A DNA stretch of 32,379 nucleotides from a virus, in the UHGV virus genome UHGV-0235014; one strand, given 5' to 3'. The translations under genes were made by a program, and so were the position numbers. Under the pieces are notes generated by a model. It saw only the letters and a program-made list of their open reading frames with translations, was not told the DNA's origin and did no database searches. Position 1 is the stretch's first letter. Every line of letters starts with the position of its first letter. This document shows positions 3,029 through 32,379 of the stretch, piece by piece.

Positions 3029-3836
3029 GTTAGCTGATTACAGGCCTCAACTGGAGGTCGTGGAGCATCGCGTGGCAGACACCGAAGATGGTTTCATGCG
3101 CGTTGCTAACGAGATTACCGACAGTCTGCTGATGGCTGATTTAACCGTCCGGCAGTTGAAGGTGATGCTCGCTATCATGCGCAAGACATACGGATTCAAT
3201 AAGCCGATGGATCGACTCACAAACACGCAGATAGCAGCCATGACAGGTATTCATCACACTCATGTTTGCGCTGCCAAGCGCCAGCTTATTGAGCGTAAAT
3301 TCCTCATTGCTGATGGCGTGAAAATCGGAGTGAACAAGGTGGTTTCGCAGTGGATTAGCCAGGACAGCTTAACATTAGCTAAAACAGCTAATAAAACATT
3401 AGCCAAGTCGGCTAATGGGTATAAGCCAAGTCAGCTAAACACAAAAGACAATATACAAAAGACAATAAATACAAATACCCCCTTACCCCCTAACGGGGGC
3501 GGCGATGGGCAGGTTAAACCTGAACGTCGCAAGGCAGAACGCATCGACTACGAATCCTTCCTGAACGCCTACAACACCGAAGTTGGTGACAGACTGCCAC
3601 ACGCTGTTGCGGTCAACGAGAAACGCAAACGCCGCCTGAAGAAAATCATCCCGCAACTGAAAACGCCAAACGTGGACGGTTTCAGAGCGTATGTCAGGGC
3701 GTTTGTGCATCAGGCCAAGCCGTTTTACTTCGGAGACAACGACACGGGCTGGACGGCCGATTTTGATTACCTGCTGAGGGAAGACTCGTTAACGGGAGTA
3801 CGGGAAGGGAAGTTTGCAGACAGGGGGATTGCATGA
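3015..3836 (+). CDS. O: replication initiator O-like protein (origin-binding; P22 gene 18 / lambda O family)
   Basis: 273 aa; N-domain ..DLT.RQ.KV.LAI.RKTYG.NKPMDR.T..Q.. parallels lambda O iteron-binding domain; internal iteron/AT-rich origin; followed by helicase with ATGA overlap. Confidence 0.85.
3372..3478. repeat. putative replication origin: iteron-like repeats plus AT-rich tract inside O
   Basis: Three related ~18-19 bp units ATTAGCTAAAACAGCTAAT / ATTAGCCAAGTCGGCTAAT / ATAAGCCAAGTCAGCTAAA (3374..3439) followed by A-rich stretch ACAAAAGACAATATACAAAAGACAATAAATACAAATAC. Confidence 0.55.
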
Positions 3837-5209
3837 AACAGGATATCGAAGCGAGCGTTATCGGTGGCCTGCTGATTGGTGGATTAACACCAACCGCCAG
3901 CGACGTTCTGGCAACGCTGGAGCCGGAAGCGTTTTCAATTCCGCTCTACCGGAAAGCCTTCGAGGTTATCCGCAAGCAGGCGCGAAACAGAAACCTAATC
4001 GACGCGCTGATGGTTGCCGAGGCGTGCGGAGAGGAGCATTTCACGTCAATCCTGATGACCAGCAAAAACTGCCCGAGTGCCGCAAACCTGAAGGGATATG
4101 CCGGAATGGTCGCGGATAACTATCACCGCCGTCTGGTGCTGGAAATCATGGATGAAATGCGTGAACCAATTCAGAGCGGAACCATCGATACATCGAGTCA
4201 GGCGATGGACGAGCTTGTAAAGCGTCTTTCAGCCATCAGAAAGCCCCGTGACGAGGTTAAACCTGTACGGTTAGGGGAAATCATTACTGACTACACTGAC
4301 ACGCTTGACAGGCGTCTGAGGAACGGAGAAGAGTCAGATACCCTGAAGACCGGAATCGAAGAACTTGACGCCATCACCGGAGGGATGAACGCGGAAGACC
4401 TGGTGATAATCGCTGCTCGTCCTGGTATGGGGAAAACCGAACTGGCGCTGAAGATTGCCGAAGGCGTTGCAAGCCGCGTTATTCCTGGTTCTGACGTCAG
4501 GCGTGGAGTATTGATTTTCTCGATGGAAATGAGCGCATTGCAGATTGCAGAGCGAAGCATCGCCAACGCCGGGAGGATGTCGGTTAGCGTGCTGCGAAAT
4601 CCTGCATCGATGGATGACGAAGGCTGGGCGCGCGTTGCTAACGGCATGAGTCAGCTTGCAGATTTGGATGTATGGGTGGTCGATGCCTCGCGGTTATCGG
4701 TCGAAGAAATACGCTCAATCGCAGAACGGCACAAACAGGAAAATCCAAACCTGTCACTCATCATGGTGGATTATCTTGGCCTGATTGAGAAGCCGAAAGC
4801 AGATCGCAACGACCTCGCAATTGCTCACATCTCCGGAAGCCTGAAGGCGATGGCGAAAGACCTGAAAACGCCTGTTATCTCCCTAAGTCAGCTTTCACGC
4901 GATGTTGAGAAGCGACCAAACAAACGCCCGACAAACGCAGATTTGCGTGATTCAGGAAGCATTGAACAGGACGCAGACTCAATCATCATGCTCTATCGGG
5001 AAGCGGTATATGACGAGAACAGTAGCGCCGCGCCATTTGCTGAAATCATCGTGACGAAAAACCGTTTTGGCTCGCTTGGTACGGTTTACCAGCGGTTCTG
5101 CAACGGACACTTTGTTGCATGTGACCAGGATGAAGCCAGACAGATTTGCACAGCATCAAATGCACCCGCTGCACGTGGCAGACGATATGCACAAGGGGCT
5201 GACGTATGA
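3833..5209 (+). CDS. DnaB-like replicative helicase (phage-encoded; P22 gene 12-like rather than lambda P)
   Basis: 458 aa; Walker [16 protein letters not shown], DnaB-type N-domain, RecA-like C-domain motifs; ATGA overlap with O. Confidence 0.85.
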
Positions 5210-5282
5210 CCATCTACATCACTGAGCTAATAACAGGCCTGCTGGTAATCGCAGGCCTTTTTATTTGGGGGAGAGGGAAGTC

Positions 5283-29242: not shown

Positions 29243-32188
29243 ATGACAGACATTACAGCCAATGTTGTGGTAAGCATGCCTTCGCAACTCTTCACTATGG
29301 CTCGTTCTTTTAAAGCGGTAGCCAATGGCAAAATTTATATCGGTAAAATTGACACTGACCCAGTAAATCCTGAAAACCAGATTCAGGTTTATGTGGAGAA
29401 TGAAGACGGTTCTCACGTTCCTGTTTCGCAACCAATAATCATTAACGCTGCTGGATATCCGGTATATAACGGACAGATTGCCAAATTCGTTACCGTGCAA
29501 GGCCATTCTATGGCTGTTTATGATGCGTATGGTGCACAGCAGTTCTATTTTCCCAATGTGCTGAAGTATGACCCTGATCAACTACGGCAGCAATTAGAAG
29601 ACCCAGATGGAGCGAATAAATACCCAAAACTTCAGATAGCAAGATGGAGAGACAGTTATGATGTAAGAGGTTGGGGGGCTATTGGTGATGGTGTTCATGA
29701 TGATACATCAGCTCTATCAGAATTACTTTCTGTTGCAACAGGTGGTGAAAAGATAGATGGGCGAGGGCTTACTTTTAAAGTATCAACTCTTCCAGATGTC
29801 AGTCGATTTAAAAATGCTCGTTTTTTATTTGAGAGAATACCGGGTCAGCCTCTTTTTTATGCTTCTGAAGATTTTATCCAGGGAGAGTTATTTAAAATTA
29901 CAGATACACCGTGGTACAACGCCTGGACGCAGGATAAAACGTTTGTATATGACAATGTCATCTATGCGCCTTTTATGGCTGGAGACCGCCATGGTGTAAA
30001 TAACCTCCATGTTGCATGGGTTCGCTCAGGAGATGACGGGAAGACCTGGACAACGCCGGAATGGCTTACAGATTTACATGAAAACTATCCCACAGTTAAC
30101 TATCACTGCATGAGTATGGGGGTTGTCAGAAATCGCCTTTTTGCTGTAATTGAGACGCGGACCGTGAGCGGAAATAAACTGCAGGTTGCAGAGTTGTGGG
30201 ATCGCCCAATGAGTCGCAGCCTTCGCGTTTATGGTGGTATAACGAAAGCAGCAAATCAGCAAGTCGCTTATATTCGCATTACTGATCACGGATTATTTGC
30301 TGGTGATTTTGTCAACTTCTCAAATTCTGGTGTTACAGGTGTTACCGGGAATATGACGGTGACTACTGTTATTGATAAAAATACTTTTACAGTTACGACG
30401 CAAAATACCCAGGATGTGGATCAGAATAACGAGGGTAGATACTGGAGTTTTGGTACATCATTTCACTCGTCACCATGGAGAAAAACCAGTCTTGGAACTA
30501 TTCCTTCTTTTGTTGACGGAAGCACTCCTGTTACTGAGATTCACAGTTTTGCGACGATTAGCGATAACAGTTTTGCTGTTGGCTACCATAATGGTGATAT
30601 TGATCCACGCGAGCTTGGGATACTCTATTTCTCTGATGCTTTCGGTTCTCCTGGTAGCTTTGTTCGCAGACGCATACCTGTAGAATATGAGGCGAATGCA
30701 TCTGAGCCATGTGTAAAATATTATGATGGCATTCTGTATCTGACGACCAGGGGGACATTAAGTACTCAACCCGGTAGTTCATTGCACAGAAGCTCTGATT
30801 TAGGTACATCATGGAATTCTCTTCGCTTCCCAAATAATGTTCATCACTCAAACCTTCCTTTTGCCAAAGTTGGCGATGAGCTGATTATTTTTGGCAGTGA
30901 GCGCGCATTTGGTGAGTGGGAAGGAGGAGAACCTGATAACCGTTATGCAGGAAATTATCCAAGAACATTTATGACCAGAGTTAACGTCAATGAGTGGAGT
31001 CTGGATAATGTAGAGTGGGTTAATGTTACTGATCAGATTTATCAGGGCGGAATAGTTAACTCTGCGGTTGGTGTTGGTTCAGTTTGTATCAAAGACAACT
31101 GGCTGTACTACATTTTCGGTGGGGAAGACTTTCTAAACCCATGGAGCATAGGGGATAACAACAGAAAATATCCTTATGTTCACGATGGTCACCCGGCTGA
31201 TTTGTATTGTTTCAGGGTGAAAATTAAACAGGAAGAATTTGTTTCAAGGGATTTTGTCTACGGAGCCACTCCTAACAGAACGCTTCCTACTTTTATGTCG
31301 ACGTCAGGCGTGAGGACGGTTCCTGTACCCGTTGATTTCACAGATGATGTTGCCGTCCAGTCACTGACTGTCCATGCAGGTACATCAGGACAAGTTCGCG
31401 CGGAAGTCAAACTTGAGGGTAATTACGCCATTATTGCGAAGAAAGTACCGTCTGATGATGTTACCGCTCAGAGATTAATCGTTAGCGGCGGTGAAACAAC
31501 GTCTTCAGCAGATGGTGCAATGATAACGTTGCATGGTTCCGGAAGCAGTACTCCACGTCGCGCGGTATATAACGCACTCGAACATCTTTTTGAGAACGGA
31601 GATGTTAAACCTTATCTTGATAATGTAAATGCTCTTGGTGGTCCGGGAAACAGGTTCTCGACAGTTTATCTTGGCTCCAATCCTGTGGTTACCAGTGACG
31701 GAACATTAAAGACAGAGCCGGTCTCTCCTGACGAAGCATTGCTGGATGCCTGGGGTGACGTCAGGTATATCGCTTATAAATGGCTGAACGCTGTCGCTAT
31801 AAAGGGGGAAGAAGGGGCGAGGATACATCATGGTGTAATCGCGCAGCAACTTCGTGATGTTCTTATTTCTCACGGACTCATGGAAGAAGAAAGCACAACA
31901 TGCCGCTATGCGTTTCTTTGCTATGACGATTATCCCGCAGTATATGATGACGTCATTACTGGCCAAAGGGAAATGCCGCTGACTGATAATGACGGGAGCA
32001 TCATTGTTGATGAGGATGATAATCCAGTGATGGTAATGGAAGACATCATTGAGCGCGTTGAAATAACGCCAGCAGGATCTAGATGGGGGGTCAGACCTGA
32101 TCTCTTATTCTATATCGAGGCGGCATGGCAGCGCAGAGAAATAGAAAGAATAAAAGCTAGGTTAGACTTAATAGAAGGGAAGCACTAA
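29243..32188 (+). CDS. tailspike protein: P22 gp9-like head-binding domain + endosialidase (endo-N-acylneuraminidase) + C-terminal intramolecular chaperone (S74-like) domain
   Basis: 981 aa; N-terminal ~115 aa conserved tailspike head-binding domain; Asp-boxes SGDDGKTW (30026..30049) and SSDLGTSW (30791..30814); C-terminal region with Ser-x4-Lys (VVTSDGTLK, Ser at 31694..31696) typical of auto-cleaving chaperone domains. Confidence 0.85.
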
Positions 32189-32340
32189 ATGTTTCGTTGG
32201 CGTCAAAAATATGAACTGCTCACATAAAGAAGTAAGTACATTGGCAAAAAACATTGACGTCAACGAAATTAAATATAAAAATTTAAATGCTTTTTAATGA
32301 CAAGAAAAGTAACTAGTGGTAAAATAACGTAGGATACTAA

Positions 32341-32379
32341 TATGTCAAGACTCAAGACTCAAGACTCAAGACTCAAGAC
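32341..32379 (+). CDS. neuO: polysialic acid O-acetyltransferase NeuO, 5' end only (continues beyond window)
   Basis: ATG followed directly by tandem AAGACTC heptanucleotides encoding RLKTQDS repeats, the published neuO contingency-locus signature; downstream of endosialidase tailspike. Confidence 0.75.
32346..32379 (+). repeat. AAGACTC heptanucleotide tandem repeat (phase-variation tract), truncated by window end
   Basis: At least four perfect tandem copies of AAGACTC plus a partial copy, beginning 5 nt after the ATG. Confidence 0.9.

Follow-up and report, generated by a model that had tools for sequence, protein, structure and literature searches.

The DNA analysed here, called the window, is a stretch of 32,379 nucleotides from a CUS-3-type, P22-like prophage of E. 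coli K1. Positions 31600–32379 are 99.3% identical to phage CUS-3 (CP000711), in which the corresponding reading frame is annotated as siaK1 and the next gene is neuO with its tract of AAGACTC repeats. The endosialidase tailspike is the last gene in the late operon of the CUS-3-type prophage. Its product contains the Pfam domains Head_binding, End_beta_propel, End_tail_spike and Peptidase_S74, and is composed of a P22 head-binding domain, an endosialidase N-terminal domain, a β-propeller, a β-barrel, a tailspike domain and an S74 chaperone. Past its heptad repeats, neuO encodes a hexapeptide-repeat acyltransferase, the O-acetyltransferase responsible for modifying the K1 capsule, with an effect on phage resistance. 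The stretch between the two genes is AT-rich (29% G+C over 32150–32341), and the inverted repeat described below is located in the 3′ trailer of the tailspike gene. The features of the region are as follows.

29243..32188, + strand: endosialidase tailspike gene (CUS-3 siaK1 type), an open reading frame of 981 codons with TAA at 32186–32188
32186..32190, + strand: TAAAT, left copy of a 5-bp direct repeat that flanks a 79-bp segment; it includes the tailspike stop codon
32189..32227, + strand: 12-codon mini-ORF (MFRWRQKYELLT), read from the sequence, which crosses the left arm
32192..32206, + strand: left arm of the inverted repeat, TTTCGTTGGCGTCAA, invariant across 61 related sequences
32207..32253, + strand: spacer of 47 nt, the loop of the RNA stem, with polymorphic sites 32216, 32219 and 32252
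32254..32268, + strand: right arm, TTGACGTCAACGAAA, with a perfect 10-bp palindrome at 32254–32263 and a −35-like TTGACG at 32254–32259
32270..32280, + strand: TAAATATAAAA, upstream copy of an 11-bp direct repeat and true left junction of the neuO cassette, one base past the right arm
32281..32341, + strand: neuO leader inside the cassette, with ATGACA at 32297–32302, 17 nt, TGnTAAAAT at 32317–32325, and AGGA at 32331–32334
32342..32379, + strand: start of neuO (ATG at 32342), followed by AAGACTC heptanucleotide repeats within which the window ends

The initial annotation described a 15-bp inverted repeat with one mismatch between the tailspike gene and neuO, and proposed for it a long-range stem, a regulator binding site or the scar of the neuO cassette insertion. 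The repeat itself is exactly as described, with a 47-nt spacer and arms that are complementary at 14 of 15 positions (93%) both on reading of the sequence and with a repeat finder. Its location is likewise confirmed, behind the tailspike stop (32188) and upstream of the neuO ATG in the 29% G+C region. The lone mismatch, G32200 against T32260, forms a G:U wobble in + strand RNA, and G32191:U32269 adds a 16th pair. The perfect palindrome of the right arm is TTGACGTCAA (10 bp), while its counterpart in the left arm, TTGGCGTCAA at 32197–32206, is palindromic at 9 of 10 positions; because these two palindromes are near-identical, an alternative reading of the arms is as a 10-bp direct repeat with copies 57 bp apart. 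The whole window contains a single inverted repeat with arms of 15, at most one mismatch and a spacer of 3–100. Dinucleotide-preserving shuffles of the window contain 0.10 such repeats on average, with at least one in 10 of 100 shuffles. The repeat is real and modestly beyond chance, and it is no statistical outlier.

In computed structures the arms form a long-range RNA stem. The + strand RNA of 32180–32285 folds with −22.6 kcal/mol (z = −3.5 relative to shuffled sequences) and the − strand RNA of the same stretch with −19.7 kcal/mol (z = −2.2), the + strand folding better because the arm mismatch is a G:U pair on that strand. After a linear correction for G+C content the folding energy is about 2 SD out, ranking 157th of 6456 among all 106-nt segments of the prophage. 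The helix begins 3 nt past the tailspike stop codon and is composed of 16 bp, of which 14 are Watson-Crick pairs, one is an internal G:U and one a closing G:U, around a loop of 45–47 nt. Whether neuO is included or not, and for every context folded between 106 nt and 1.2 kb in length, the arms are predicted to pair on + strand RNA with probabilities of 0.76–1.00, which bears out the proposed stem in physical terms. Both deviations from perfect pairing, the G:T present in all copies and the A32257G variant described below, are wobble pairs in + strand RNA but mismatches in − strand RNA; this bias is only a hint, with a chance probability of about 1 in 4 for transitions. An RNase III substrate would comprise about two helical turns of double-stranded RNA; the helix here has 16 bp. 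A search of 31800–32379 against Rfam 15 at a permissive threshold returned noise only and no family match, the best overlapping match being to a plant microRNA model, which reached 18 bits where the gathering score is 60 (E = 2). Additionally, the mini-ORF MFRWRQKYELLT opens with the ATG that adjoins the tailspike stop, and GGGAAG lies 5 nt ahead of this ATG; ribosomes reinitiating here could melt the stem, or the frame could be there by chance.

The CUS-3-type trailer was compared with the corresponding region of other P22-like phages. Eighty such phage loci were found via the conserved head-binding domain, among them 34 distinct non-CUS-3 tailspike C-termini with enough downstream sequence, and a trailer was scored as terminator-like if a compact hairpin of −7 kcal/mol or lower, followed by a T-rich tail, was present within 150 nt of the stop. 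Hairpins of this kind are positioned behind 22 of the 34 other tailspike types, compared with 42 of 170 shuffled trailers (25%). The same scan found no compact terminator-like hairpin in the CUS-3-type trailer (score zero), and a consensus terminator scan of 31000–32379 found no + strand terminator. At this position the long-range stem is the sole strong structure of the CUS-3 trailer, and the bases that follow it, TTAAATATAAAAAT, contain four T in the first eight and no U-tract (UUAAAUAU). The stem therefore resembles the intrinsic terminators of P22-like tailspikes in being a stable RNA helix on the + strand behind the stop of the last late gene, but differs from them in its loop of 45 nt rather than 3–8, its moderate stem G+C and its lack of a U-tract. 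Because of the 45-nt loop and the missing U-tract it is not a canonical intrinsic terminator, and this candidate, for which a loop of about 3–8 nt rather than 45–47 nt would be expected, was rejected.

The repeat shows a narrow distribution. Of 5,426 complete E. coli genomes, 176 carry the intergenic stretch 32186–32342; identity is 97–100%, and in each case the stretch lies directly behind this tailspike. In the phage collection the repeat region occurs solely in CUS-3, phiv205-1 and vB_EcoP-720R6. A search of viral contigs with a two-arm pattern gave 21 true copies, all nearly identical. The last 27 nt of the tailspike gene, used as a pattern on metagenomes, identified 21 contigs, and 21 of 21 continue into the repeat. 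Among 185,579 species genomes the two-arm pattern matched unrelated sequences only, these being unrelated palindromes (in Archangium and others) and a tandem duplication in Symbiopectobacterium. Since it was found only there across these searches, the repeat is a fixed, single-copy part of the 3′ trailer of this tailspike. Diverged copies suitable for covariation analysis were sought in E. coli genomes, phage records, viral contigs, species genomes and metagenomes, and none was found. In the 61 related sequences, variable sites number 1 of 30 in the arms, 3 of 47 in the spacer and about 13 in the last 300 coding positions, a census that leaves aside rows shifted by indels and in which variation is too low for power. 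The only natural arm variant is A32257G in strain 10035776-3, which retains a U:G pair on the + strand and renders both 10-mers identical; compensatory double changes number zero in this low-variation set. Conservation carries no weight here because all copies are nearly identical. For the same reason the presence of the repeat in other neuO prophages is uninformative, although its absence there was to have counted against the initial annotation, the copies being at least 97% identical.

The boundaries of the neuO cassette are defined by the 11-bp direct repeat TAAATATAAAA. In CUS-3 (L009) its two copies lie at 3585–3595 and 4438–4448; the first three bases of the downstream copy are the neuO stop codon, and CATCATGCAGACATATTACCAATATT follows. 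The cassette is 853 bp long including one TAAATATAAAA copy, with the perfect 11-bp direct repeat on both bounds. In neuO-positive prophages (158 genomes) the order is inverted repeat, a single T, TAAATATAAAA, and the neuO leader and gene; there are 0 cases of neuO without the tailspike and the repeat, both searches returning 158 genomes. In AF14, VR50, H22, 10035776-3 and 7 of the 21 metagenome contigs, a single TAAATATAAAA is directly followed by CATCATGCAGAC; these may have lost the unit by precise deletion or may preserve the site as it was before insertion. When CUS-3 is deleted in silico between its TAAATATAAAA copies, which leaves the inverted repeat untouched, the product matches three of the four neuO-less relatives at 315–318 of 320 positions, while VR50 scores 227 of 320 in this ungapped comparison because of a one-base indel shift. 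A different arrangement is seen in M21816 (L003, at about 4300–4330) and phage 720R6 (L004): the cassette is kept for its first 22 nt, after which the sequence jumps to CAATATTAAT (junction ATGACA|CAATAT). Because these 22 nt are kept, both descend from neuO-positive prophages, and on sequence grounds we regard this arrangement as a second, independent loss of neuO. The neuO-less prophages are located at torT, in the lambda attB/bio region and beside another integrase, and both arms of the inverted repeat are intact in every one of them.

This map, with phage backbone up to 32280 and cassette beyond, is the more useful result, as the repeat as such is of little importance; it allows backbone and cassette bases to be told apart when the neuO promoter or a DsdC site is mapped. 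The neuO unit has the properties of a phage moron, in that it carries its own promoter-like leader, is 853 bp long, is positioned between the tailspike trailer and the int-side terminator, and distinguishes otherwise identical prophages, which either have it or lack it precisely. The inverted repeat, in contrast, lies outside the unit and is part of the recipient backbone.

Taken with the map, the sequence comparisons indicate that the repeat belongs to the 3′ untranslated trailer of the tailspike gene, outside the neuO cassette, where it looks like an ordinary, hitherto unannotated stem-forming element. We tentatively favor, with a probability of about 0.4, a 3′-UTR stem of the tailspike message that may form a barrier at the mRNA end, mark a processing site or provide weak insulation; formation of the stem is computed, and its effect on the RNA is what we infer. 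Late transcription past the tailspike stop would allow the arms to pair into the 16-bp RNA helix, which could then block 3′-to-5′ exonucleases or serve as a processing site. The stem would also separate the tailspike message from the downstream neuO region, and would be at most a weak pause or termination signal. REP/BIME intercistronic hairpins and the lambda sib/RNase III retroregulation site are examples of stems that stabilize or process mRNA 3′ ends. The CUS-3 stem resembles them in being a long, perfect helix that lies in untranslated sequence behind a gene, and by analogy antiterminated phage transcription would cross it, so that an exonuclease block or a cut by a double-strand-specific RNase may be possible. 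It is unlike them in being single-copy, unrelated in sequence and only 16 bp in helix length.

Three other explanations have to be weighed against a 3′-UTR stem. That the repeat is a recombination scar, or the terminal repeats, of the neuO cassette insertion is exceedingly improbable: the right arm does stop one base short of the left-junction repeat at 32270–32280, but neither arm is inside the cassette, the two being together on its tailspike side, nothing related is present at its other end, and the actual junction is the 11-bp TAAATATAAAA. Since both arms are whole in the neuO-less prophages, the repeat neither flanks the cassette nor is its scar, and the comparison with neuO-less P22-like prophages that the initial annotation had called for identifies the 11-bp direct repeat, not the inverted repeat, as the insertion boundary. 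Of the interpretations offered there, the long-range stem thus stands on the computed folding, while the neuO scar falls. It is possible, though on the unlikely side, that the repeat has no selected function and arose as a by-product of an AT-rich recombination hotspot behind the tailspike stop, for example by a small palindromic insertion or an inverted duplication, persisting only because the module is young and clonal. Consistent with this, the 79-bp segment 32191–32269 is flanked on both sides by TAAAT, the right copy being at 32270–32274, in a layout like a target-site duplication; the chance of such a 5/5 match at the local composition is about 0.003 per register, a value to be read in light of the match having been noticed after the fact in AT-rich DNA. 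Without the segment, the sequence ...GCAC TAAATATAAAA CATCATGC would match the context of the neuO 3′ end, ...GCAA TAAATATAAAA CATCATGC. The 11-bp repeat that bounds neuO and the second independent deletion junction are found at the same spot, and together the shared stop contexts and the TAAAT flanks suggest repeated illegitimate events at one AT-rich position. The near identity of the copies, with arms no more conserved than their surroundings, and the modest statistics (10 of 100 shuffles; about 2 SD in folding) also fit an origin without selection. Against it, a pattern for the empty site, in which the tailspike end is joined directly to the post-repeat sequence, had no match in viral or metagenome contigs, and 0 other copies of the element were found in the 5,426 E. 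coli genomes, the phage collection and the 185,579 species genomes. Moreover, a 16-bp helix on a transcript is physically consequential whether selected or not. With terminal inverted repeats of 15–16 bp, a total length of 79 bp and the flanking 5-bp direct repeat TAAAT, the segment has a MITE-like layout, but unlike a MITE it has neither a second copy nor an empty site in these searches. Because no other copy exists in the genomes searched it is not a family of mobile miniature elements; copies at several unrelated sites would be expected of a MITE- or IS-derived element, and E. coli genomes and phages show a single type of locus. An integron attC-like reading was also rejected, the arms, judged by eye, misfitting the RYYYAAC / GTTRRRY core sites.

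The third explanation places the repeat in the control of neuO: a dimeric regulator would recognize the palindromes TTGGCGTCAA and TTGACGTCAA, which are spaced 57 bp apart, and/or TTGACG in the right arm would serve as −35 element of a promoter for neuO, with its −10 lying across the cassette junction. We consider this unlikely. In its favor, the right site is fully palindromic over 10 bp and the left at 9 of 10 positions, the two 10-mers being identical in strain 10035776-3, and a promoter-like arrangement of TTGACG, 17 nt and AAAAAT is present at 32254–32282. The contiguous 10-bp palindrome differs, however, from the usual T-N11-A box of LysR-type regulators. A better promoter-like site, with an extended −10, is found 43 nt further downstream within the cassette; this leader site is the best in the region, with a 10/12 match and the TG. 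Furthermore, prophages without a neuO to control keep the repeat unchanged. The shared motif TTGRCGTCAA has four matches in the window against 1.1 expected, a number reached by 5 of 100 shuffles. The other matches (at most one mismatch), at 4040 and 30981, are both inside coding sequence, and the motif does not recur at the other control regions of the window, which ends about 8 kb short of the end of the prophage. Sites for MetJ, IHF, CRP/FNR and LacI-family regulators, compared by eye with consensus sequences, do not fit either. Our literature search for a mapped neuO promoter or terminator, which had partial coverage, yielded no start site. Connolly et al. (2022) report that purified DsdC gel-shifts a ‘neuO promoter’ fragment and that the neuO transcript is more than sevenfold lower without dsdC (PMC9659370). 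Placed on the window, the gel-shift primers of that study (PMC9659370) extend from about 32128 to past the heptad repeats; the fragment thus includes the inverted repeat, in favor of a role in neuO control, and mixes backbone with cassette because the primers span both the repeat and the neuO leader. The ChIP peak at the neuO promoter is very modest (PMC9659370), and TTGRCGTCAA has 0 occurrences in the DsdC-footprinted dsdC-dsdX intergenic region, which shares no motif with the repeat that would correspond to the DsdC operator. A broader proposal, in which the stem or its palindromic 10-mers would work as a switch through which the phase-variable, capsule-modifying neuO is tied to the state of the prophage, is quite improbable; the element would act either as an RNase III-type retroregulation or insulator site parting antiterminated late transcripts from neuO, or as a promoter-proximal docking site for DsdC or another host factor activating a hybrid neuO promoter with the right arm as −35.

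Several further observations concern the surroundings of the repeat. The dsdC-dsdX region of IHE3034 (L113) contains its own perfect 10-bp inverted repeat, GTGAGCTAAA ... TTTAGCTCAC (5190–5199 and 5257–5266), with a 57-nt spacer; its layout resembles that of the repeat studied here, and its sequence is unrelated. On the minus strand of the window, a strong promoter-like site is present at 32348–32321 (TTGACA, 16 nt, TATTTT; 10 of 12 matches), in which TTGACA is made of the neuO ATG and the first heptad repeat. Judged by its sequence, this site would give antisense transcription through the inverted repeat into the tailspike gene.

The 3′ end of the tailspike gene is mosaic. Epsilon15-like (Uetakevirus) endosialidase tailspikes (ZX5) and related prophages (MS 57-2; L007, L008) are about 97–99% identical to the window up to 32156. 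Past 32156/32157 the ZX5/MS 57-2 type has a different set of last ten codons, an unrelated trailer and its own compact hairpin, preceded by an A-run; alignment of the CUS-3 and ZX5/MS 57-2 trailers showed no significant similarity (score 22 against a shuffle mean of 19.4). Because identity to the epsilon15-like sequences ends at 32156, the last 32 nt of the tailspike gene and the repeat-bearing trailer represent a separate mosaic piece. Slightly upstream, at 32143–32149, a patch polymorphism (ATAGAAAGA versus ATGGATAAG) is shared by the epsilon15-like tailspikes with VR50 and the CE10 primer sequence, a pattern suggestive of gene conversion between the two tailspike lineages.

On the other side of the trailer, neuO-less relatives (L001 4530–4760 and L003 4530–4850) retain an 84-nt remnant of the 3′ end of a CUS-3-type integrase, and the sequence behind this remnant appears to resemble the lambda attP P arm. 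In M21816, the lambda core GCTTTTTTATACTAA is positioned next to ybhB/bioA. From these arrangements the integration module appears to have been swapped behind the same tailspike trailer. Additionally, the hairpin GCCCGTTGGAAGCGACGGGC at 4500–4530 of the CUS-3 locus (L009; also at about 4370–4390 of L001) has A6 before it on the + strand and is, because of this A6, a canonical minus-strand terminator, which probably ends int transcription ahead of neuO and the tailspike gene.
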